From the IMG/VR virus record IMGVR_UViG_2595698548_000001, positions 130,140-194,139 of that record: a stretch of 64,000 nt of DNA, one strand, 5' to 3'. The DNA comes from a virus (lineage: Duplodnaviria > Heunggongvirae > Uroviricota > Caudoviricetes). The notes under the pieces are model-generated. The model made no database searches, was not told where the DNA came from, and was given only the letters and a program-made list of their open reading frames with translations. The stretch's first letter is position 1. Each line of letters opens with the position of its first letter. Below, piece after piece: positions 2,220-34,118 of the stretch. Made by a program: the position numbers and the translations under genes.

Positions 2220-3359
2220 ATGGCAAAGAAAAAAGAGAAGGCACCGCTCCCGCAACCTTCTGCAACCGAATCCCTGGCGGTCAAGTATCGCCCACGCACG
2301 TTGAAGGACGTGAAAGGCCAAGACAATGCTGTCGCCGCTGTCAAAGGTATGATCAAGCAGCGCAAGTACCCGGGTGCCATCCTGATCACCGGGCCGAGCG
2401 GCACCGGCAAGACCACGCTTGCCCGCATCCTTGCCACGTACATGAATGCCGACGACCCGAAGAAAGTGAAGGAGTCGATGGCGTATCGTCTGGGCGAAAA
2501 GCACCCAGACATCCTGACGCTGAACGCTGGCACCAACGGCAAAGTCGAAGACATCCGTACGCTGGTCAAGGGCTCGCGCTCTGCTCCGATGTCCAACTAC
2601 CGCGTCATCATCATCGACGAAGCACACAAGCTCACCGGCGCCTCTGCCGAAGCTCTGCTTGTTCCAATGGAAGAGCCGCCGAGTCGTACCATCTGGATTC
2701 TCTGCACGACCGACCCGGAGAAGCTGCTCGACACGATGCAGAACCGCTGTGTCAAGTTGCACCTGAGTCCTGTGGAGCCCAACCACATCGTTGATCGTCT
2801 GGCAGAAGTTGCTGCCGCAGAAGGCGTCAAGATGGGCAAAGAGAAGGAAGCGAAGAAGGCGCTGAATGCCATCGCGCAACTTTCCGACGGCAGTATGCGC
2901 AACGCCATCTCCATTCTCGAAAACCTCATGTTCGCCGTTGCTGGTGGCTTGGATTTCTCGGCCGAGGGTGCCCTCAAGTCCTATGTCGAGTCCGGTGCTG
3001 CCGACCTAGACAAGGCAGCAGCCTCCATGGTGGCTGCGTCGCTCAATCTCGACCTGCCGGGCGCTGTCAGTATGATTCGTCGTGCTGAGAACCCGCGCGG
3101 TATCGTGTACAAGTCGCGTATGCTGGTCGATTTCCTGATCGGCGAAAAGACGAAGACTGCCAAGTTCCAACCGTACACTGGTCGCGTGTTCAAGCAGGTT
3201 GCCGAGAAGATGGGCATTAAGTACAGTCTGCGTGCCCTGCTGCTTCTCCAGACGACCATCACGAACGTGGAGTTGCAAATGAACAGTTGCAGCATCGCCG
3301 AAGCCGTGCTGCTCCAAACCGCCATCGGCAATTTTATCATCGAGAACAAGAGCGAGTAA
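2220..3359 (+). CDS. dnaX: clamp loader AAA+ subunit, DNA polymerase III gamma/tau-like
   Basis: LAVKYRPRTL, Walker A GPSGTGKTT, Walker B IIIDEAH, TMQNRC (SRC-like). Confidence 0.9.
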   Translation: MAKKKEKAPLPQPSATESLAVKYRPRTLKDVKGQDNAVAAVKGMIKQRKYPGAILITGPSGTGKTTLARILATYMNADDPKKVKESMAYRLGEKHPDILTLNAGTNGKVEDIRTLVKGSRSAPMSNYRVIIIDEAHKLTGASAEALLVPMEEPPSRTIWILCTTDPEKLLDTMQNRCVKLHLSPVEPNHIVDRLAEVAAAEGVKMGKEKEAKKALNAIAQLSDGSMRNAISILENLMFAVAGGLDFSAEGALKSYVESGAADLDKAAASMVAASLNLDLPGAVSMIRRAENPRGIVYKSRMLVDFLIGEKTKTAKFQPYTGRVFKQVAEKMGIKYSLRALLLLQTTITNVELQMNSCSIAEAVLLQTAIGNFIIENKSE

Positions 3360-12651: not shown

Positions 12652-13581
12652 ATGTACCAATACTTCCATGACCCGTTGTCGTTTCGGCTGTCAACGTGGC
12701 CGTGGGGTGGTGCGTCTTACATCAAGACGTTCAACTACCGCGTCCACAACATCCTGTTCAAACCGCTGCTGGACTATCTCGCCGCTGAGCTGGACAAGAG
12801 CCCGACACTGAAAGTACGCAAGACCACGTTCACTCTGGTCAACGTCTACAGCGGGTTCACGGATATGAGCTACGGCTCAGGGCCTGCGCCGTATCGTTCC
12901 ATTCGACGCGGTCCAATCGTTTTCACGTTCGCCATGACACGTCGCGAGGGAGGCTTCCAATTCCCTCGCCACGTTATTTGGAACACAGGACACACCGCGC
13001 TCTGGGGTCCGAACCTGCAACGCGGACACGACTACCTGTCGATCAGCGTGCCGATCAACATTGCCATGCAGTGTCGGTTGAACAACACGCTGCGCACGCA
13101 GATGGAGTGGCTGTACAAAATCGTTGGAGGCTGGAGCAAGTCGTATGCGATGAGCCGTGATTCATTCACGCTGCGCAGCGACAGCAACAAGCTCACGCAT
13201 GACCAGTTGTACTTCCGAACCATTCCGAAGACCATGTGGATGTTCCCGTGGCAGGACTGGAAGTACGTTCGAGAGTTCTGGGATCGCGGCGCCGATGTGC
13301 TGAATCTGGACAACCTGGACGTGCAGTTCGTGGATTACTTCTTGTCGTACCTGACACGGTACTTCAACAAGGTCGACGACCCGAACGTGAAGCCTGCCTT
13401 TGAGTTCATCGAGCAGACCGTACGTTCCGGTATTCTGGATTGCGTACAGCGCACTTCGAGTGACCTGTCACGTCTGGTTGAACCGTACATCCCAATCGAC
13501 ATCAAGACACAGATGGTACAAGGCGAAGCGACCGATGTCGAATCGCTTGTTCGTGCCATTTGCAATGGGGACACCAAATGA
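12652..13581 (+). CDS. hypothetical protein
   Basis: 309-aa aromatic-rich ORF, tightly coupled to its neighbours. Confidence 0.7.
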   Translation: MYQYFHDPLSFRLSTWPWGGASYIKTFNYRVHNILFKPLLDYLAAELDKSPTLKVRKTTFTLVNVYSGFTDMSYGSGPAPYRSIRRGPIVFTFAMTRREGGFQFPRHVIWNTGHTALWGPNLQRGHDYLSISVPINIAMQCRLNNTLRTQMEWLYKIVGGWSKSYAMSRDSFTLRSDSNKLTHDQLYFRTIPKTMWMFPWQDWKYVREFWDRGADVLNLDNLDVQFVDYFLSYLTRYFNKVDDPNVKPAFEFIEQTVRSGILDCVQRTSSDLSRLVEPYIPIDIKTQMVQGEATDVESLVRAICNGDTK

Positions 13582-18401: not shown

Positions 18402-21400
18402 ATGGGCTCTCTGTTTACGCTGAACAGCCTCTCTGCCGCAATCGACGCGGCGGTTGAGGAAGCATCGAAGACTCCCTTCAAGCGCGAAATCGATGCCATG
18501 TACGACGCGCTTGGTGCGTCCCTTTCCGGTGATGCTCCAGAGTACGTTTCGCTGGCTGCCGGCGCACCCGACCTGGTGAAGTCTTTGCAGCCGGTCTCTC
18601 TGGACCCTGAGCTGTATAAGGCTTACAACTCCTTCTTCTACAACAAGCGCCGCGCCTTCCTGGTCGAACTGTTCGATCAAGTCGCTGACGTTGCCAACTC
18701 CGTGAACTGCTTCTTCCTGTTCATGCGGGAAATGCTGCAACAAGGCCGCAGCCTGTTCGCAGCCGAATCCAATCGTACCGAATGGGATCGTCGCATTCAG
18801 GAGCTGGCTGAACGTGCTGTCAAGCAGCGCGATATGCTGCGTCAAGGCGACAAGTCGTCGGTCAACGAATCGATGTATCGCCTGCTGGGTGCGATGATGC
18901 ACGGCGACAAGCACTCCATCCGAGCCTCAGAGGTCTACTCTGGCGGTGTCGATGTGATGCTGGCACGCTCCGCGCGTGACAAGGCACTGATGTGCTCCAA
19001 CATCCAGTACGGCTATTTCCTGGCGTCCAATACGTCGCAGTTCGGTTATGAGAATGACCGCATGCAGGCGTTCATGACAGAGACTTCGCTCAAGGTCAAA
19101 GAAGCCGCTCGTGAAATCCTGGAGTACCTGTTCGGCGCCGGCCACGAAGGCAGCAGCTACGAGCCGTACATGAAGTCGCTCCCGCTGACCACGGACTTCA
19201 CCGAAATCCAGCGCATCTTCGAGAAGGTTGTGGGCGTCAAGCTGGGCGTCAACTTCTTCCACAACATCACCTTCGGCACCGACAGCAAGTCCAAGGCTGA
19301 GCAGTTCTGCCGCGCCGTGTTGGTGCTGCACGCAGAGAAGTCGGCCGAAGCTGAACTCTCCAAGCAGTACAGCCGCGAAATCGCTCGCTCCGACATCGGC
19401 CCGGAGGGTTTGCTGTCTGTCGAAGCCCTCGTTAAGCAGCGCGTACAGCAGGACATCACCACGGAAGCCGCCCTGCTCAACCGTGTTGTTGGCTCCACAA
19501 TCGCGTTCACCTTCGACAAGCCCACGGCGCGATTCATCGCACAGGCAGAAGAAACCGAAGACCTCAACTTCGCCAACTTCGACTCCTGGTTCAGTCTGTG
19601 GAGCACGCAGTTCCTGCGCAAGAAGGGCAGCACTGTCTCCAATGACCTCGTCAAAGGTCGTGTCAAGCTCGCCAACATCCCGCGCTACGTGCTGCCTGTG
19701 TCCAAGCTGGCCCAGATCACCAAGGCGCGTCAACGTCTCGGTATGTCTGTCGAGGCTACCCGCGCGAACGAAGACGGTCTGTACATCACGCCCCAGGGCA
19801 CGCTCGCCTATCTGCCGACTGGCGAAGACCGTGACAAGCTGACGGCCATCAACGAGTTCGAGCGTCTGGGTGCTGCTGTGGCCAAGGTCTGCTCCGACTA
19901 CGGCATCAACAACAGCATCCTCGCCGAGAGCTACGAGAAGGTTGCCCAGTACGGCATTCCGCACAGCGTCTACGCTGAGGCAAACGCCAACCTGAAACGC
20001 CTGACTGAGTTCCACGACTCCGTGCTGAGCTACGACTGGGACTACGGTCTGCGTGTCTACGGCTCCGAGCGCCCTGGTCTGGTTCGCTGTGAGGTGCAAA
20101 TCGGCGCGGTGAAGCCTGATACGCTTACCATCGCTGATTACCTAGGCTATAACATGGCCAAGGAAGGTGAGGCGCCGTTGCAGAAGACGTTCGCCGACAG
20201 TCTGATGTTGATGACGCATGACAACCCGATTGCGTCCGACACGCATCCGCGCGACATCTACGGTTCCACCATGGAGCCGGACAAGTTCGTCAAGACCGCC
20301 CAGTTCCGTTCGATCTTCGAGACGTATTTCTTCCACGTCTACAAGGGTGAGCTTCCTGGTCTGCAGGAGCTGGTGAAGCGTGCCATGTCGGAACTCTCCA
20401 TCGAGAAGCTCGACAAGGAAACTCCGCGCGATCAGGGTCCGCTGTACACTGGTCTGATCACCAGTGACGGTACCATGCGCGATGCTGGCCGTAATCAGGA
20501 AACTGACATCGAGCTGGCTGAGCGTCTTCTGGCAGCCACTGCGAACGCCACCAGCGGTAAGAACGGCACTTTCATCGCCCGCGAACTGGGCGAGGATATG
20601 CGCGACGCCTCGTACCAGGAAATGCAAGATGCCATTGCCGAGCACGAAGACTTCTTCGTTGCCGACAAGTCGCCTGCCCACCACTTTGCCCGCCTGTTCA
20701 ACTTCATCGGCGGTAACGTGTTCAAGCAGATTCTCGACGGCATCAACAGCCTGAGCGTCGAGCAACTCACCGATGGCTCTCGCAGCCATGAAGTGGTCGA
20801 GCGTCTGCCATCTGCCGATGGCGGTCAGCCCATGGACGTGAAGCGCACCATCGTGCGTCCGAACTCCAATGAGCTGCTGAACACGGTCAAGCCTATCGCC
20901 ATCATGTTCGGCAAGTACGCGCAGAACTATGAGGCGTTGGAAGCCGAGGCCGAAGAAGCCATCAAGTCTATCGAGTACGATCCGGGCGTCGATGTGGAAG
21001 ACATCCACTTCGCGGGTAGCAAAGAGTCGTTCTCTGTGTTCCCGCACCAGCTGGACACCCATCGGTATCTGCGCAAGCCGCAGCCGCCGAAGTTCGCAGT
21101 GCTCGACATCAGCCCCGGTGGCGGTAAGACCTCGATCGGCCTCGGCGACATGGCTGCCATCGTCAAGGATATGCAGGGCTTGGGCAAGAAGATTCGCCCG
21201 CTGGTTCTCTGCCCTGATGGTCTGATCCGTAACTGGTGTAATGATATGAAGTCGTTCGCCGGTGACACCTGGAACATGATCCCGATTGACAAGAACGTGT
21301 TCAATCGTTGGGGCGCCGAGCGTCTCCAGCAGGTGATCGAACAGGCTCCGCCGAACACGATCGTGGTTGCTGGTCTGAACTTCCTGCGGAACAACCGCAT

Positions 21401-24359: not shown

Positions 24360-24872
24360 ATGCAAACCAGTAAAGAGAAACTGATGGCGCAGCAATTGGT
24401 GCTGTTCCATCTGGGCTTCTACAAAGGCCTGATCGATGGCATTTGGTCGACCGCCACCATCACAGCCAAGAAGAAATTCGAGGCCGACATGAGCTTCTTG
24501 CCTGCCTATCCGAATCAAGGACTGCCCTTCGGTGAGCGCGACAAGTTGCCCAAGAACATGTACTACGCCAACGGTCTCATCAAGCACCGTGAGCTGACGC
24601 CTGAACGCGAGAAGGAAATCATGGACGCCATGAAGGCGCGCATGGGTGCTGCCACGCGGGAAGAGCCGAAGGTCGAAGTCGGTATTACTGAGATCGACGG
24701 GGCAGGTCTCGTGGGTCCTGCCGGTGAAGCTGGTCAACCCGGCCCAGACTATCCAGCAGACGGACAGCCCAACGCGTTGGCTGGTGCTGCAGGGCAGGAA
24801 CAGAAGCCTGCACACCAGCAACAGGGCAAGCCACATCATCACGGCCATCGGCCCAAAGATCAACGGCGGTGA
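24360..24872 (+). CDS. protein with N-terminal peptidoglycan-binding-like domain and low-complexity tail
   Basis: QLVLFHLGFYKGLIDGIWSTATITAKKKFE resembles PG_binding_1; GPAGEAGQPGP and Q/H-rich C-terminus. Confidence 0.6.
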   Translation: MQTSKEKLMAQQLVLFHLGFYKGLIDGIWSTATITAKKKFEADMSFLPAYPNQGLPFGERDKLPKNMYYANGLIKHRELTPEREKEIMDAMKARMGAATREEPKVEVGITEIDGAGLVGPAGEAGQPGPDYPADGQPNALAGAAGQEQKPAHQQQGKPHHHGHRPKDQRR

Positions 24873-25426: not shown

Positions 25427-25432
25427 TGTAAA
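25427..25432 (+). promoter_or_regulatory. candidate early/middle promoter motif TGTAAA
   Basis: Between the terminator and polA. Confidence 0.35.
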
Positions 25433-25464
25433 TGCTATCCAGACATGGATTAGAGGTGTTTGGT

Positions 25465-28400
25465 ATGCCTAAGTGCGATCATGTCGAGTTGGACTACAAA
25501 TACTCCAAGAAGTTTCGCAGAGTCGAGAACAACTTCGGGTATGTCCGCTTGGCCAAATCGGTAGTCAAGAAGCCCAAGGGCAAGATTCTGTTTGTGTTGG
25601 ACTACGTTCCGACCGAAGACCTGCGCAGTGGCCGTATGCTCAGCGGTGCCACTGGCCAACTGTTCGATAACGTCATCAAAGTAGCCGAGCAGTATTACAA
25701 CAGCGACCACGAACTCGCCGATTATTCGTGGCTGGCAATATCGTTCCACGCGTTCAAGACGGCAGGCCAACCCGAGCAGTTTCGCTCTGACGCCAAGCTG
25801 GAGTTTGCGGAGCGCCTGAATTTCATCATCACCGAATACAAGCCAGATGTCGTAGTGACCTTCGGACAAGACCCGTACAAGGCACTGAACGGCGAGTTGA
25901 TTGCCTCGAAGTACCGCGACCGAAAGGGTATCCACTACGAGCACTTCTACGGCGTACCAATCGAGACGACCGTAAGCAAGGGTGAGAAGTCGCACACGTT
26001 CAAGCACGTTCCGACGCTCAGCCTGAACACCCTGGTAAACGCCAGCGGCAAAGGCGAGCCAATGTACCTCGCTGGGTATGTTGCGCGTAACCTGATGACT
26101 GCGCTGTATGGCGGCGAGTTGCGGTACAAGATTCCTGAGTTGAAGTACAAGGTCAGGCTGGTCGACACTATCGACAAGTTTGACGAAATGCTCGACACGA
26201 TCACCGAAGCCAAGGAAGTGGCAATCGACACGGAGACCAAGAACCTCATGCGGATCACAAACCGCATGTTGACGATTCAGTTTGCCGTGGATGAAAAGGC
26301 TGCGTACATTCTGCCCATCGGACACAAGGACAGTCCTTGGTTGCCCGACGAGTTGAAGTACATCAAGAAGAAGTTGCGCCTGTACTTCGAGCGCAAGAAC
26401 AAGAACAAGCAGCACATCTACGCCAACGCCGTGTTCGACCTGAACAGGATTCGCGTGGACCTTGGAGTTCGCCATTTCAAGAATGCTGTCTGGGACGTGT
26501 TCGCTGGTGAGTTCGGGCACGACGAAAACATGAAGGTGTTGGAGGGTATCACTGGCGGTACCTACTACACCCTGCTCAACATTTGTATGCAGTACGGTTG
26601 TACCGCGTACTACGAGTCCGACTTCGGTAAGGACAAGCGGGCAACCATCGAACAGGCCGACTTGGATAAGTCCCTGCTCAATTACTGCGCACTGGACGTC
26701 GTTACGCTCATCCACATCAAGCGCCTGCAGATTCAGCGCGGTAAGGACTACGGCTACAAGAAGTACCAGAGCATCGTGAAAGAGCAGATCAGTGATATGC
26801 TCCACGTGTTCTCGTGCCTTGAGGTCAACGGGTGCAAGACGGACATCAACTGGCTGTTCTACCTGAAGTCCAAAGACAGCCCGATCTTGAAGCACCGTGC
26901 CGACGTCATCAAGGCACTCAACGAGACCAAGGGCGTACAGCGCGCCAACGCCAAGATGTCGAAGCAGTCTGGCGCGCCGCAACTCGGCCTGTTTGGAAAG
27001 ACCAAGCTCAACATCTTCGACATCGGCAAGAAGGCACACTTGAACATGCTCATGTTCGACGTGCTCAAGCTCAAGCCGCTGTCTACGGGTAAGGGCGGTC
27101 AGGGCAACATCGACAAGGACTTCCAGAAGAAGTATGCGGACATACCGGAAGTGGCTCTGTACAACGAGCTACAGAAGGTCAAGAAAATCTACAACAGCTA
27201 TGTCAAGGCGTTTGTCAAGCAATGGGGTTCCGACTCCGACATGCGCTCCGACTCCTGCATTCGTCCGTTCTTCCAGTTCCGAGACGTGGTAACAGGCCGT
27301 ACCTCGGCGAAGAAACCATCGCTGCACCAAATCCCAAGCAGAAACGAAATCACGGAGTTCATCAAGAAGATGTTCCCCGGCCGTGCCGACTTGGGTAAGA
27401 TCATCAAGCGCCTGTTCATTGCGGACAAGGGTCGCCTGATCTTGAAGATCGACTATGCGGCACACGAAGTTCGTGGTTGGTCGATCATCACTGGTGACCA
27501 AGAAGTGGCAGACCTGTTCTGGCACGGCTTGCGTATGCGTAACCAGTACAAGCTCTACCCAACGGAAGAGCTGGCGAAAAAGATTGACATGGAAGGTGAC
27601 GTCCATAAGATCAACGCCGCGTACTTCTTCGGTATGAAGATCGAGGACGTAGATAAGCCGAAGCGTAACAGCGTTAAGCAGGTAATCTTCGGTCTGATTT
27701 ACCAGCAGGGCATGGAGGGTGTTGCCAAGTCCACAGGGCAAACCCTTGAGGCGATCAAGTCTCTGGTCAAGGCGTTCTTCAAGCGCTTCCCGATCGGTGC
27801 TGGCTGGTTCGACAAGATCAAGGAGAAAGCTGCCAAGCAGTTGTATGTCGAATCGCCCCTGGGCCGTCGCCGTAACCTGTGGGCATTCCTGATCCCGAAA
27901 GATGCCAAGTCGTTCGAGGGTGTCTACGCTGCCACTGGCCGTCGTGCTGTGAACTCGCCAATTCAGGGCATGGGTTCTGACTTCCTGGTGTCTGGCGCTC
28001 GGGAAATCGAGAACATGAAGTATGCCCACTACCGCGAGACTGGCCACTACCCGGACTTCTACATGTGCAACTCTGTACACGACTCCTTGGAGTTTAGCGT
28101 TGCGTATGAGGACGTTTGGCTTGCGATTCGGATGATCGAACACGGCCTGACTTACGGCGTCATGAGTGTCATGGAGAAACGTCATGGTCTGCGCTTCCCA
28201 GTGCCGCTGGAAATCGACTTTGAAATCGGCGCCAACATCCGTGACTGCAAAGGCTGGGATTACAGCCTTGCCAATCTGGATGAGTTGATCGAAAAAGCTC
28301 TGGTACAGCAGCGCGATGAATTCGGCTACGAAGTGGACGTTGAGAAGACACTCAAGCAGATCACCCGTGGTCAGTACGAGCACATGCCTGACTGGGCCAA

Positions 28401-28563
28401 GAAGCAAGCCTGGAACCTGAAACTCAAGATGAAGGGTATGAAGAAAGACCCGCGTGCCGCCGACGAAGTCTTCACAGCGAAGACTGCGAAAGCCGCCATC
28501 GAGAAATTCAACGCCAAGCCTAAGAAACCTGTGAAAGGCAAAGTCATGAAGGAGGCCGCATGA
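25465..28563 (+). CDS. polA: family A DNA polymerase with N-terminal UDG-like domain and 3'-5' exonuclease
   Basis: Exo I IDTET; motif A KIDYAAHEVR; motif B RNSVKQVIFGLIY; motif C SVHDSL; N-terminal LFVLDYVPTEDLRSGRMLSGATGQL is UDG-like. Start 25465 chosen from the AGAGG RBS (ORF track gives 25432). Confidence 0.93.
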   Translation: MPKCDHVELDYKYSKKFRRVENNFGYVRLAKSVVKKPKGKILFVLDYVPTEDLRSGRMLSGATGQLFDNVIKVAEQYYNSDHELADYSWLAISFHAFKTAGQPEQFRSDAKLEFAERLNFIITEYKPDVVVTFGQDPYKALNGELIASKYRDRKGIHYEHFYGVPIETTVSKGEKSHTFKHVPTLSLNTLVNASGKGEPMYLAGYVARNLMTALYGGELRYKIPELKYKVRLVDTIDKFDEMLDTITEAKEVAIDTETKNLMRITNRMLTIQFAVDEKAAYILPIGHKDSPWLPDELKYIKKKLRLYFERKNKNKQHIYANAVFDLNRIRVDLGVRHFKNAVWDVFAGEFGHDENMKVLEGITGGTYYTLLNICMQYGCTAYYESDFGKDKRATIEQADLDKSLLNYCALDVVTLIHIKRLQIQRGKDYGYKKYQSIVKEQISDMLHVFSCLEVNGCKTDINWLFYLKSKDSPILKHRADVIKALNETKGVQRANAKMSKQSGAPQLGLFGKTKLNIFDIGKKAHLNMLMFDVLKLKPLSTGKGGQGNIDKDFQKKYADIPEVALYNELQKVKKIYNSYVKAFVKQWGSDSDMRSDSCIRPFFQFRDVVTGRTSAKKPSLHQIPSRNEITEFIKKMFPGRADLGKIIKRLFIADKGRLILKIDYAAHEVRGWSIITGDQEVADLFWHGLRMRNQYKLYPTEELAKKIDMEGDVHKINAAYFFGMKIEDVDKPKRNSVKQVIFGLIYQQGMEGVAKSTGQTLEAIKSLVKAFFKRFPIGAGWFDKIKEKAAKQLYVESPLGRRRNLWAFLIPKDAKSFEGVYAATGRRAVNSPIQGMGSDFLVSGAREIENMKYAHYRETGHYPDFYMCNSVHDSLEFSVAYEDVWLAIRMIEHGLTYGVMSVMEKRHGLRFPVPLEIDFEIGANIRDCKGWDYSLANLDELIEKALVQQRDEFGYEVDVEKTLKQITRGQYEHMPDWAKKQAWNLKLKMKGMKKDPRAADEVFTAKTAKAAIEKFNAKPKKPVKGKVMKEAA

Positions 28564-28889
28564 GTGGTGACCTGCAACACGCCGTCGATCTTTTGAACGA
28601 GGCAGTGGCGCTTGATCCGAAACTCTGGTCGCTGTTTGACGTGATGGTCCCTACGGCTACCGTCGTAGGGCTATCAACGCCTATCGAGTTGATGCAGGTC
28701 AATGATCGACTCGCCATGGCGAACGTGCTCGGAGTCCTGAACGGACTTCTTGCACCCAGTGCAAACGAGCGTATCAGCATTATCGTGGAAAACAAAAATG
28801 GACACACCCAACGCAAATTTTGCGTCACCGGGCTTGAACATTCCGCCGTGGGCGATGCTCAGCACCAGGATGTCGAAGGGTCTGTATAA
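28560..28889 (+). CDS. hypothetical protein
   Basis: ATGA-coupled to polA. Confidence 0.7.
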   Translation: MSGDLQHAVDLLNEAVALDPKLWSLFDVMVPTATVVGLSTPIELMQVNDRLAMANVLGVLNGLLAPSANERISIIVENKNGHTQRKFCVTGLEHSAVGDAQHQDVEGSV

Positions 28890-29221: not shown

Positions 29222-30367
29222 ATGAAGATTTCCCAGAAGCCAAACCTCTCTTTCACTGCACATGCCAAAGAACTGCAATCGGCAATCAGCAAGGTGCAGA
29301 GCATCACCCAGTTCGTCGATTGCCTTGACACCGAGCGCAAGCATGCCCTGATCGTCGCTGATGGCAAAGCCTACGTTGCAGGTATCACACCTGATGCGTT
29401 TGCGTGCCTCCAGATTGCCGACAGTATGGCTGACGCTGAGGGTAGCCTGGTGTTCGATCCGCAGACGGTCAACGGCCTTATCAAAGGTCGTGATGTTCTG
29501 AGCGTCGAAGGCAGCAAAGCGCAAGTCACGTTCAGTGCCGTGAAAGGTAAGTACACCGCCAAGACCGAACTCGCCTTGTTCGATGACGCCGACATGGTGC
29601 GCGTCAAGTCCGTGTTCGAGGCTCCCAAGGCGAAGAAGCTCAAGAATGCCGTCATCAACGCAATTCGCGCAGGCATCAAAGCGGCCGAACTCACCAACTT
29701 CTACTCGGACGAAGTGATCCTCGCTTTCGTCAAGGTTGGTGAGAAAGGCGTCACCATCGAGTGCGCGGACAACTTCCACATTTCCTGCTACCAGGACAAG
29801 ACACCGAGCGACGCCAAGTTTCGCTTTGCCATTCCTGCCAAGACTTTCGGCCTGATCGACAAGTTCATCGGCGACGAAGACGCGCAGTTCAGTCTCGACG
29901 GTAGCCAATTGCGTGTCCACGGCAAAGGCTTCACTGTGAGTCTGCCGGAAACTCAAGCCGACGAAAGCTACTTCGATTTGGTTCCGCAGTATCTGAAAGC
30001 CCTCACCGAGCCGAAGACCAAGATCAAGTTCAAGACCGAGGCGTTGAAGACGGTCGACAACATGTTCGCCATCATTACCGAAGATACCAAGATGGCGTTC
30101 TCCGTCGGCAAGAAGGGTGTCGAGATTCGCATGACCACACGTAGCGGCGAAGTCAGCGATGAGTTCAAGGCGGCCGTTGATGGCGAGAAGCGCACTGCGC
30201 ATATCGATCCGCGCATCCTGAATGACCTGCTCAAGAAAGCCAAGGGTGATGAGATTCCGATGGAGTTTTACGTCGGCAAGAAAGGCACCTCGTCGTGCTT
30301 CAAGATCATTTCCAAGCAGAGTGACACTGCGCGCCTTACTCAGATTGGTACCTTCTATGACGAATGA
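29222..30367 (+). CDS. dnaN: sliding clamp, DNA polymerase III beta-like
   Basis: 381 aa (three-domain beta size); N-terminal KELQSAISKV; ECADNFHIS resembles the ATD.HRL motif; near polA, with a gamma/tau loader in the window. Confidence 0.72.
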   Translation: MKISQKPNLSFTAHAKELQSAISKVQSITQFVDCLDTERKHALIVADGKAYVAGITPDAFACLQIADSMADAEGSLVFDPQTVNGLIKGRDVLSVEGSKAQVTFSAVKGKYTAKTELALFDDADMVRVKSVFEAPKAKKLKNAVINAIRAGIKAAELTNFYSDEVILAFVKVGEKGVTIECADNFHISCYQDKTPSDAKFRFAIPAKTFGLIDKFIGDEDAQFSLDGSQLRVHGKGFTVSLPETQADESYFDLVPQYLKALTEPKTKIKFKTEALKTVDNMFAIITEDTKMAFSVGKKGVEIRMTTRSGEVSDEFKAAVDGEKRTAHIDPRILNDLLKKAKGDEIPMEFYVGKKGTSSCFKIISKQSDTARLTQIGTFYDE

Positions 30368-31332: not shown

Positions 31333-32928
31333 ATGGCTGACATTATTGTCCGTGAGCGCATGTACATCCCCAGCTATCTGGTGGATGAGCGCGACGTGAA
31401 GAAAAGGTACGTCCATCGGTTTTACGAGGAGTCGGCCTGTCGAAAATGTGATAACCGTTCCGAGCGGCACAACTACGTCTGCCAGAAGTGCCCGGCGTAC
31501 ACTGGCAAGAACGTCACCGTCAATGAGAAGATCGTCGATGGCGTTCACTACTACGGCATCCCATTGGGTGAACGCAAGAACCTGAAAGCTCATCTTGGTA
31601 TCAAACCCAAGCGCCATACCTTCATCGACCTGCGCACAAAAGCAAAGCGCCGCTACGATGTCCGCATGGTGAACTTCAAGCCGTTCGATTACCAAGAACC
31701 TGCTGTCGAAAAGCTCGGCGATGCAGGTTTTGGCATTCTCAAAGCGCCGCCACGTTCCGGTAAGACTCCGACCATGCTCTACACGGGCATCAAGAAGTTC
31801 CCGTACCGCATCTGCATCATCGCTGACCAGAAGGAGTTCCTCGATCAGTTTCTGGCACACGTCGAGGAATTTACCAACCTGCCGCAGCTGGAGAAGAAGT
31901 ACAAGAAGAAACTCTATGGTTACGGCAAGAAGCCCGAGGACTTCAAGAACTTCGAGATTATCGTCTGCACCTACCAGACGTTCCTGAGCGAGAAAGGCAA
32001 GAAGCTGCTCAAGCTCCTGAACAAGAACTACGGCACTGTGTTCGTGGACGAGGTGCATTCCTCAGGTGCATTGAAATACTCCGAGTTCCTGAATGAGCTG
32101 GCAATGCGTGTGCGTATCGGTGCGACCGGTACCGACGACCGCAAGGACGGCAAGTACAAGATCGTCGAACAGATCATGGGGCCCGTCACTGCGCTGATCG
32201 AACGTGACCAGTTGCAGGCGCAAGTCTTCGTGCATCCGTTGGACTTCGTGAAGTCCAAGAGCCAGTACAAAGGCCGCGCTGGCTTCACCTATTGTGTGAA
32301 CTTCCTGAGTAAACACAAGAAGCGCAACCAGTTCATCGTTGACTGGGTGATGAAAGACTTGGAGAAAGGGCACAACCTGTTGATCCCTGTGTTCCGTAAA
32401 GAGCACGTCTGGGAACTGGTCAAGATGATCAACGACGAGGCTGGCAAGAAGATTGCTGATGGCTTCGTTGGTGGTGCCAAGAACAAGAAGGACATCGAGC
32501 GCAGACGTGAGGTACTGGAGAAGGCCAAGTCCGGCAAGATTCGCGTGGTCATCGGCATTCGCTCGCTGATGCAACGCGGCCTGAACGTCCCTCGCTGGAG
32601 CATGATCTACGGCGTCATGCCTATCAACAACGAACCAAACTGGAAGCAAGAGTCGTCGCGTGTGCTCACCCCGTTCGAAGGTAAGCGCAAGCCCGGCATC
32701 CGGCTCTTTGTGGACGAGCACATTGGGTTGACCTTGGGTTGCTTTGCTGGCACGTACAAGCAATGCCTCAAGTTCAAGCACAAGCCAACTGAGGTGGCAA
32801 GTGAACGAGCAATCAAACTCTTGGAGAAGCACCAAAGCCGCCGCGGTGGACGAGGCGGTGACTTCATGGAGGACACCAAAGCAGTGCGATCAACCCCGAG
32901 AGCACTCGGCCGTCCATTCGGAGATTAA
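31333..32928 (+). CDS. uvsW: UvsW/XPB-like SF2 DNA helicase with N-terminal zinc finger
   Basis: CRKC..CQKC; KAPPRSGKT; FVDEVH; ATGT; QRGLNVP. Confidence 0.82.
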   Translation: MADIIVRERMYIPSYLVDERDVKKRYVHRFYEESACRKCDNRSERHNYVCQKCPAYTGKNVTVNEKIVDGVHYYGIPLGERKNLKAHLGIKPKRHTFIDLRTKAKRRYDVRMVNFKPFDYQEPAVEKLGDAGFGILKAPPRSGKTPTMLYTGIKKFPYRICIIADQKEFLDQFLAHVEEFTNLPQLEKKYKKKLYGYGKKPEDFKNFEIIVCTYQTFLSEKGKKLLKLLNKNYGTVFVDEVHSSGALKYSEFLNELAMRVRIGATGTDDRKDGKYKIVEQIMGPVTALIERDQLQAQVFVHPLDFVKSKSQYKGRAGFTYCVNFLSKHKKRNQFIVDWVMKDLEKGHNLLIPVFRKEHVWELVKMINDEAGKKIADGFVGGAKNKKDIERRREVLEKAKSGKIRVVIGIRSLMQRGLNVPRWSMIYGVMPINNEPNWKQESSRVLTPFEGKRKPGIRLFVDEHIGLTLGCFAGTYKQCLKFKHKPTEVASERAIKLLEKHQSRRGGRGGDFMEDTKAVRSTPRALGRPFGD

Positions 32929-32929
32929 G

Positions 32930-33406
32930 CTGGTAGTTCATGAGGCCAAGATTCATCTTGGGCCCTCAGGACTCAAAGAGTACCACGGTCGTCAAGAGAC
33001 GGCCGTGCTTGCCGGCATACTGCACAAGTCCGCATGTCGGCATAAGGTCTGGCGCCGCGTAGTCGCCAACGCCGTCGAGACGGAAAACTCCGTGTTGCTG
33101 CTCGAAGGGCCTGAGGCCAGATTCGAGGCCGACAAGGTGTGCAAGTACGTCAAAGGTGATGTGGACGTGATGTCACCTGCTGAGTACCTGCAATCTGTAA
33201 ACAGAGCAAAGATAGTCTTCTGTCCAGTCGCACCCAGTATGATCAAGGCATATCCAGACCTGATCAACGTGTTGCTGGACGCTAACGAATTGCATACGAT
33301 ACTCTCCTATGACCAAGCGCAGGAAAGATTTCTTACAAGACTTAGACAACGAGCTGCAAAGCGTCGATCCCAAGTCTCTACGCTCATCTATCGCGAAGGA
33401 AGATGA
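32930..33406 (+). CDS. hypothetical protein, start uncertain
   Basis: Coding-like frame LVVHEAKIHLG...; no ATG near the helicase stop. Either CTG 32930 after GGAG or an upstream overlapping GTG is the start. Confidence 0.5.
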   Translation: MVVHEAKIHLGPSGLKEYHGRQETAVLAGILHKSACRHKVWRRVVANAVETENSVLLLEGPEARFEADKVCKYVKGDVDVMSPAEYLQSVNRAKIVFCPVAPSMIKAYPDLINVLLDANELHTILSYDQAQERFLTRLRQRAAKRRSQVSTLIYREGR

Positions 33407-34118
33407 GGTTGCCCTGAATTTCCGCTTCGATAACGTCCGCCAGAAGCTGCTCAAGTCGCGTGGTGTTGACGGCTACCCGTTCAGTCTGGCGCGTTCCCCG
33501 TTTGTGTTGGAGGATGCCCTGGTGCGGATCAAGCCGATCGTCCTCGACGTTCAGGCCCTCGCAAAGAAGACCCAGAACGAACAGCGCGACGCCGTTGCCC
33601 TGCTCCAGTCCAAGCACGCCATCACGTGGTTGCCGGAAGAGTTTGTGATGCGCAGCGTGTCGATCAAGAAGCAGCTCGCCAACATCCACAAGGTGATGGA
33701 GAACCCGCTTCGTGGTAGTTACACGATGGCGATTGGCAGTTATCCGAGCGACACTAGAGCCAAGCTGCTGGCGCTAAACTTCATGGATCGTGCGATTACG
33801 GCACAGCAAGCCGGCCAGCATCGTGGACGTGCGTACCCACTCTGGCACACTCTCTACGGTAACCAGTGGGACAGCCTGCGCGACGCCCGCGAGGAAGAGC
33901 ATTTCAGTATGCTCATCATCACCAACGTCGGCATGGACAGCAGCACAACCAAGCTGGAGAAGCTGCGCGACTTGCTGGTGAAGTACGGTAACGTGCCAAA
34001 GATCGTCGTCGTCAACGGCTGCGATCCCGTGACCTTCTTCGCTGAGAAGGTGCGCCTACCCCTCAACTATGCGTTCTACCTGTCGGCGGAACAAAAAGCC
34101 TCTATCATGGACATCTAA
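33309..34118 (+). CDS. DnaC/IstB-like helicase-loader homolog with degenerate ATPase motifs
   Basis: IGSYPSDTRAK at the Walker A position, MLIITNVG at Walker B, and LEKLRDLL...PKIVVVN resembling the DnaC/IstB C-terminal part. Confidence 0.45.
   Translation: MTKRRKDFLQDLDNELQSVDPKSLRSSIAKEDEVALNFRFDNVRQKLLKSRGVDGYPFSLARSPFVLEDALVRIKPIVLDVQALAKKTQNEQRDAVALLQSKHAITWLPEEFVMRSVSIKKQLANIHKVMENPLRGSYTMAIGSYPSDTRAKLLALNFMDRAITAQQAGQHRGRAYPLWHTLYGNQWDSLRDAREEEHFSMLIITNVGMDSSTTKLEKLRDLLVKYGNVPKIVVVNGCDPVTFFAEKVRLPLNYAFYLSAEQKASIMDI

Follow-up and report, generated by a model that had tools for sequence, protein, structure and literature searches.

How does a phage whose only recognisable DNA polymerase belongs to family A keep that enzyme on its template? 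The question arises from a 64,000-nucleotide stretch (hereafter the window; positions 130,140 to 194,139) of the virus record IMGVR_UViG_2595698548_000001, which comprises 258,139 bp and is rated 100% complete. The polymerase gene of the window, polA, encodes in its thumb the pentapeptide QLGLF, which an original prediction, made from the letters alone, took for a bacterial clamp-binding motif that tethers Pol A to a sliding clamp of the same phage. After the analysis described here, we consider it fairly likely that a Leu-Phe pair at the tip of the Pol A thumb docks in the hydrophobic cleft of the phage's beta-type clamp and so tethers the sole polymerase. We infer that the clamp is the partner of this motif and that binding to it would increase processivity. 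The candidate docking peptide probably confers processivity on Pol A because a conserved core is found at the site of the T7 processivity loop and because the phage encodes both a clamp and a clamp loader (Table 1).

The thumb loop of Pol A and its conserved core

The polA product shows the Pol I fold, the catalytic motifs A and C and a 3'-5' exonuclease, which places it among the family A polymerases. Pfam located DNA_pol_A (E 2e-45) at residues 527-936 and the exonuclease at residues 242-430, with a weak UDG-like match at the N-terminus, and the AlphaFold2 (AF2) model, with a predicted local distance difference test (pLDDT) value of 91.5, matched the Klenow and Bst fragments in Foldseek with a template modelling (TM) score of 0.77. 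The catalytic columns D674, E679, H883 and D884 were invariant among 70-107 relatives, and the same was true of D266 and E268 of the exonuclease. Neither Pol B nor Pol III alpha was detectable in the complete 258-kb genome by searches that gave matches in control genomes; judged in this way, Pol A is its sole recognisable polymerase, which agrees with the idea of a clamp-tethered Pol A put forward in the original prediction.

The pentapeptide is encoded at 26980-26994 (caa ctc ggc ctg ttt) and corresponds to Q517-L-G-L-F521, in the context SGAP-QLGLF-GKTKLNIFDIGKKAHL that had been quoted before; the loop peptide around it is approximately SGAPQLGLFGKTK. Residues 517-521 conform to the sequence Q-L-[S/D/G]-L-F of bacterial clamp-binding motifs. 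In the AF2 model, helices 484-497 and 500-513 precede a loop (514-533), after which helix 534-544 begins, and compared with Klenow the phage enzyme has about 28 inserted residues between helices H and H1. From residue 529 onward (FDIGKKAHLNMLMF), the HMMER alignment pairs Pol A with Klenow FNLSSTKQLQTILF (chain residue 255 onward), where H1 starts. The thioredoxin-binding domain (TBD) of T7 polymerase also precedes H1 (Czernecki et al. 2023), and since the segment after the motif aligns to the start of H1, the earlier mapping of the motif to the T7 processivity-loop site holds.

A match to QLxLF says little by itself, because 1.2 such strings are expected by composition in the proteome of about 83,000 amino acids (0.012-0.015 in Pol A), where two were seen, and because the second copy is a fold element. 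Strings of this type do arise by chance, as a QLVLF upstream of polA and an antisense QLGLF illustrate (both described below), and the pentapeptide of Pol A could be another functionless resemblance. By sequence statistics the pentapeptide is only mildly unusual, and what goes beyond chance is the G-L-F-G core kept at the thumb site. This core occurred at the same place in about 83% of the 151 representatives, a sample covering 29-60% identity, and such conservation already contradicts a chance origin and makes it extremely unlikely.

These representatives were the query and the best 150 cluster representatives from an exhaustive search, and a second sample of 88-89 polA loci or records of related phages was used for the anchor residues and for gene linkage. 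The nearest named relatives by Pol A were the Pseudomonas phages Lu11 and HRDY3 (53-54% identity), phage NCTB and the Erwinia/Dickeya jumbo phages (about 45%). Among the 151 sequences, column 516 was P in 103, column 517 was T in 34, S in 34 and Q in 26, and column 518 was mainly K, T, Q, G or N and hydrophobic in only 9. The following columns were far more restricted: G (72), S (33), T (16) or D (11) at 519, together 132; L (112), I (14) or M (11) at 520, together 137; F (119), Y (7), W (6) or L (6) at 521, where F, Y, W, L and M together made up 140; and G in 112 at 522. The pair [LIM][FWYM] was found in 126 of the 151 and the full [GSTDN][LIM][FWYM]G in 96, whereas the canonical Q[LM]x[LM]F was retained in just 2. 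The conserved unit of the Pol A family, as read from this alignment, is therefore P-x-x-[G/S]-L-[F/M/W/Y]-G and not QL.LF: the proposed conservation of the site stood for the core [GS]-L-[FMWY]-G and failed for positions 1 and 2. Two freely varying residues precede the core, and a linker of 3-8 residues comes after it.

In the second sample the motif was present at the same site in all but about 3 of 88 loci, with an anchor residue that differed among clades: Lu11-like phages have GLFG, the Erwinia/Dickeya phages GLMG, and others GIWG, GLWG or GLYG. Closer relatives also had a hydrophobic residue at position 2 (M, F, V, I or L), and PQLGLFG was restricted to the window phage and two contigs that are 85% identical, so that the host-type QLGLF is, in these sequences, a peculiarity of the window phage and these relatives. 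The thumb insert and motif were not found at the equivalent place in the Pol A of T5-like, N4-like, Kayvirus and Bastillevirinae phages.

The restricted occurrence of QLGLF raises the possibility that the peptide of the window phage mainly recruits the DnaN of the host rather than the phage clamp, given that QLGLF is the bacterial consensus and that Q-L at positions 1-2 is found only in the window clade. QLGLF is also the C-terminus of E. coli Pol II. We consider this reading very unlikely: the family-wide motif lacks Q and L at positions 1-2 and yet the site is conserved, and the phage has a clamp and a loader of its own.

Many Pol A homologues (P0027, P0044, P0052, P0064 and others; 1300-1600 amino acids) were 300-550 residues longer than the query and matched it in two or three separate stretches, as if inteins or other insertions interrupted them.

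The phage clamp, its linkage to polA and the clamp loader

The original prediction had named the genes starting at 29222 and 2220 as clamp and gamma/tau-like loader, and both assignments were borne out. The 29222 product was modelled by AF2 (pLDDT 90.7) with the three-domain fold, and has the length, of DnaN/beta clamps (about 370-380 amino acids), and Foldseek matched it to many bacterial DnaN structures (E 6e-22; TM 0.73-0.77). In addition, the profile of its family matched 1vpk (Thermotoga DnaN) with E 8e-5, and PHROG assigned it as a processivity factor (E 4e-36). Identity to bacterial DnaN was only 12-17%. A mapping of the peptide cleft onto bacterial DnaN by sequence was rejected because two HMMER alignments disagreed in register. 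The 2220 product has the delta'/gamma-type AAA+ module with a DnaX lid that characterises DnaX (gamma/tau) loaders, with matches to DNA_pol3_delta2 (E 1e-26), AAA (E 4e-13) and the PHROG clamp loader (E 2e-113); the match to DNAX_ATPase_lid (24.1 bits) is under the curated cutoff of 27.

Table 1. Features of the candidate clamp-tethered replicase and its putative clients (window coordinates unless stated otherwise)
Feature	Coordinates	Strand	Remarks
Gamma/tau-type AAA+ clamp-loader subunit	2220..3359	+	379 amino acids; Pfam, PHROG
Family A DNA polymerase gene (polA)	25432..28563	+	1043 amino acids; UDG-like N-terminal domain, 3'-5' exonuclease, polymerase domain; Pfam, PHROG
Thumb insert, residues 498-528	26923..27015	+	Short helix 500-513 and loop; between the equivalents of helix H and H1 (helix 534-544)
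Candidate clamp-docking peptide P516-Q-L-G-L-F-G522	26977..26997	+	Column counts in 151 representatives
Small open reading frame	28560..28889	+	109 amino acids; between polA and clamp genes; syntenic in relatives
Beta-type sliding clamp	29222..30367	+	381 amino acids, three domains; AF2, Foldseek, profile match, PHROG
SF2 (ResIII/DEAD) helicase	31333..32928	+	Downstream of clamp; Pfam ResIII E 2e-14
TnsA-like / PD-(D/E)xK nuclease	genome 124689-125192 (L093:4690-5193)	+	167 amino acids; about 5 kb upstream of window start; Pfam DUF7487, Tn7_TnsA-like_N

The clamp gene accompanies polA throughout the related phages. A beta-like clamp gene was found within 10 kb of polA in 82 of 89 loci, mostly 0.4-2 kb downstream, and 3 further records have it elsewhere, which brings the related loci or records that encode a clamp to 85 of 89. 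The phrog_947 clamp profile found none in T5-like, N4-like, Kayvirus and Bastillevirinae genomes, although the same profile finds clamps in 13 of 14 control genomes; these four control groups thus lack both the motif and the clamp.

With these components, the following mechanism can be proposed. The loop 514-533 at the thumb tip would display a short linear motif, PQLGLFG in the window phage, and the gamma-like loader would place the phage clamp on primed DNA at the primer terminus. The clamp would then encircle the duplex exiting the polymerase, beside the thumb tip, and docking of the Leu-Phe pair in the clamp cleft would keep the sole polymerase of the 258-kb genome from leaving its template. 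The helicase or the nuclease could occupy the second cleft of the clamp dimer.

Alternatively, the peptide could dock on a different hub protein, for example the clamp loader, a single-stranded DNA-binding protein (SSB), a recombinase or a primase-helicase. A polA gene linked to the clamp gene is at the same time linked to the entire replication module, and no covariation with clamp residues was demonstrable, both of which would fit such a partner. We nevertheless regard it as improbable, since hydrophobic x-x-[GSD]-L-F peptides, carried by several DNA enzymes on loops or at their ends, are the hallmark of sliding-clamp clients (PMC3201878, PMC12926913) and the thumb tip faces the exiting duplex, where the clamp sits.

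The same core on a nuclease and on helicase tails

The G-L-F-G core was also found at the ends of other DNA enzymes. The TnsA-like nuclease starts with MLGLFGN, followed by the basic run KKGKRKRKFKK, and about 25 homologues, down to about 60% identity, retain M-x-G-L-F-G and the basic run, which makes the nuclease a candidate second clamp client. In Dickeya phage JA11 (locus L005, about 12759-13130, - strand), the annotation splits a 'DNA repair helicase' into JA11_156 and JA11_155, with about 1 kb between them, and this gap holds an unannotated homologue of the nuclease; the arrangement resembles the insertion of a mobile (homing-type) nuclease into the helicase gene.

In the superfamily 2 (SF2) helicase, the motif is displayed on the C-terminal tail of relatives. 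G[LIM][FWY][GSN] occurred in 19 of 55 distinct tails, compared with 0.43 expected and a maximum of 4 in 2000 composition-preserving shuffles. It was found in at least 8 unrelated tail contexts, often with Pro before it and basic residues or the stop codon after it, in tails that are otherwise poorly conserved; examples are ...MPQGLFGSLKRLKPKK and the doubled GGMFGGMF of Lu11-like phages. The presence of the motif on the ends of the SF2 helicase in relatives and of the nuclease in this genome suggests that the clamp could be a shared docking hub. In phage HRDY3, an unannotated open reading frame of 109 amino acids (L104:837-1166, +) starts with MAGLFGN, and its end (...LLCHCWPKQCH...) resembles DUF4326. 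The annotated frame of 95 amino acids just before it (L104:550-837, +) contains GIGLFGQ.

This distribution bears on a different explanation of the thumb loop, in which G-L-F-G would serve the structure of the thumb or its contact with DNA, for example as a hairpin packed against helices H/H1 or the UDG-like domain, or by touching the product duplex. In the AF2 model the loop has pLDDT values of 80-83, above those of disordered segments, with isolated beta bridges at residues 518 and 525; the flanking helix is conserved as well (xVxxANxxL, with N506 in 117 of 151), and the tips of Pol I thumbs are known to contact the minor groove. On the other hand, the core recurs at the extreme N-terminus of the nuclease and in helicase C-tails that are otherwise unconserved, the motif is preceded by two unconstrained residues and followed by a linker of differing length, and the anchor tolerates F, M, W and Y. 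A role in the thumb fold cannot account for a core that also appears at the N-terminus of one protein and in the C-terminal tail of another, and we consider a purely structural or DNA-contacting role unlikely.

Several observations nevertheless speak against docking of the thumb loop in the phage clamp. The Gln that is the hallmark of bacterial clamp-binding motifs was present in only 17% of relatives (26 of 151), and a few relatives that encode a clamp have a degraded Pol A motif (GLGG or GGWA) or none. Two near-complete relatives with a GLFS/SLFS motif gave no detectable clamp. Searches of individual records with phrog_947 (G001 and G010) and with a single relative's clamp sequence (G001, G002 and G010) returned no matches; as the single-sequence query missed G003 and W01, both matched by phrog_947 (W01 weakly, E 0.0012), its negatives carry little weight. 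In the AF2 model the loop, at 80-83 compared with about 95 on its flanks, is semi-ordered rather than a freely disordered tether, and L520 and F521 could pack on the thumb. The helicase of the window itself ends in a variant, ALGRPFGD (32902-32925), and the tails of its clade in ...GRPFG[SD]. Furthermore, GLFG showed no proteome-wide enrichment in the genome (3 occurrences, compared with 1-7 for permutations), and the Pol A motif and the nuclease N-terminus did not covary, relatives with GIWG or GLMG keeping GLFG on the nuclease. Mutual information between the anchor residue (F/M/W/Y) and the clamp columns merely followed phylogeny and is uninformative, because the signal tracks the Erwinia/Dickeya clade.

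A wider extension of clamp docking is possible but, in our judgement, doubtful: G-L-F-G could be the code of a self-contained, phage-specific clamp toolbelt, in which one divergent beta-type clamp would serve the thumb loop of the replicative Pol A, the C-tail of the SF2 helicase and the N-tail of the mobile TnsA-like nuclease. Loss of the Gln would insulate these clients from the QxxLF network of the host, and the window clade would have secondarily regained QLGLF and be able to use both clamps.

Known clamp systems, look-alike motifs and neighbouring genes

The closest parallels to the motif are the bacterial beta-clamp clients (the C-terminus of Pol II, the internal motif of Pol III alpha, the N-terminus of Hda, Pol IV and MutS), in which, as in the phage, the pentapeptide ends in L-F and has a small third residue. 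Their QL[S/D]LF or QxxLF is displayed on loops or protein ends, as is predicted for the phage motif, and in both cases several DNA enzymes share the motif. Unlike these clients, the phage family lacks the hallmark Gln and the Leu at position 2 in its consensus and has an additional Pro before the motif and a Gly after it, and its presumed receptor is a divergent phage clamp. In T4 and RB69, the gp43-gp45 pair combines a family B polymerase with a trimeric PCNA-like clamp, the motif is at the C-terminus and the T4 tail ends in ...LFG. The T4 toolbelt resembles the system proposed here in having a phage-encoded clamp and loader and a hydrophobic peptide common to the polymerase and other clients, but its motif is C-terminal, in contrast to the internal thumb loop of the jumbo-phage Pol A.

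T7 gp5 is likewise a family A polymerase with its processivity factor attached at a thumb insert immediately before H1. Its insert, however, has about 76 residues (T7 residues 258-333), binds host thioredoxin and shows no sequence likeness to the shorter phage insert, which carries a linear motif and has as presumed partner a ring clamp loaded by an ATPase. No T7 polymerase was found among the PDB sequence matches listed, and the phage insert is an analogue of the T7 TBD by site and not a member of it. If the proposed docking is correct, two unrelated solutions to processivity would have arisen convergently at one position of the Pol I fold.

Among family A enzymes, the actinobacterial PolA2/APEX with its QxxLF has been called the first bacterial Pol A with an identified clamp motif (NAR 2026, PMC12926913). 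Like the phage Pol A, it is a family A polymerase with a predicted beta-clamp-binding motif; there the motif is on a loop of a vestigial exonuclease domain, the clamp is that of the host and the enzyme is a low-fidelity repair polymerase, whereas the phage motif is on the thumb tip of an enzyme with its own clamp, an intact exonuclease and a predicted replicative role. The idea of a hybrid Pol A/Pol III-type replicase was already proposed in 2011: for RSL1 and Ma-LMM01, a replicase of Pol A, polIII-beta and polIII-gamma was predicted, with the beta homologue conferring processivity on Pol A (Kazlauskas and Venclovas 2011, PMC3201878). The component set is the same and these are also large phages; no clamp-binding site was located on the polymerase in that proposal. 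For jumbo phages with a T7-type polymerase that have a loader, Iyer et al. 2021 reported no detectable clamp. In the literature that we searched, no paper puts a clamp motif on the thumb of a phage Pol A or maps a polymerase-clamp contact for Pol A-type jumbo phages, whose replicase has so far been a parts list of Pol A, a beta homologue and a gamma homologue. The motif points to possible further clients of a phage-specific clamp, the helicase and the nuclease, and long-range amplification could profit from a Pol I-type enzyme that has its cognate ring clamp.

Several look-alike motifs were rejected. The open reading frame 24360-24872, two genes upstream of polA, has a QLVLF at its N-terminus that belongs to a conserved helix; in relatives, A, K or T takes the place of the Phe. 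This frame has no Pfam match and begins with the conserved QQ[LV]V[LM]..LG[FY]Y.G..DG[IV]W[GS], presumably resembling a peptidoglycan-binding helix pair; the syntenic genes of Erwinia phages are annotated as putative lysozyme. Two candidates are antisense to real genes: the C-terminal QLGLF of a 95-residue frame at genome position 248608, and KVGIWG* in locus L011, which lies opposite a SNF2 gene. The start MGSLF (18402-18416) of a 1969-residue SNF2-type helicase is kept only in the closest clade, where it reads MGSIF or MGSTF (L to T in one), and the N-termini of other relatives are unrelated. Additionally, LWSLF in the small open reading frame between polA and the clamp gene is unconserved in relatives.

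In the GIWG clade, the small frame at the corresponding place (locus L011:13373-13777, +) begins with MGIFG. Downstream in the window, a protein of 269 amino acids (33309-34118) matched PHROG 20094, 'DNA polymerase', with E 5e-119. Neither Pfam nor a PDB sequence search gave a match that would back this label; the protein may act as a loader-like or accessory replication factor.

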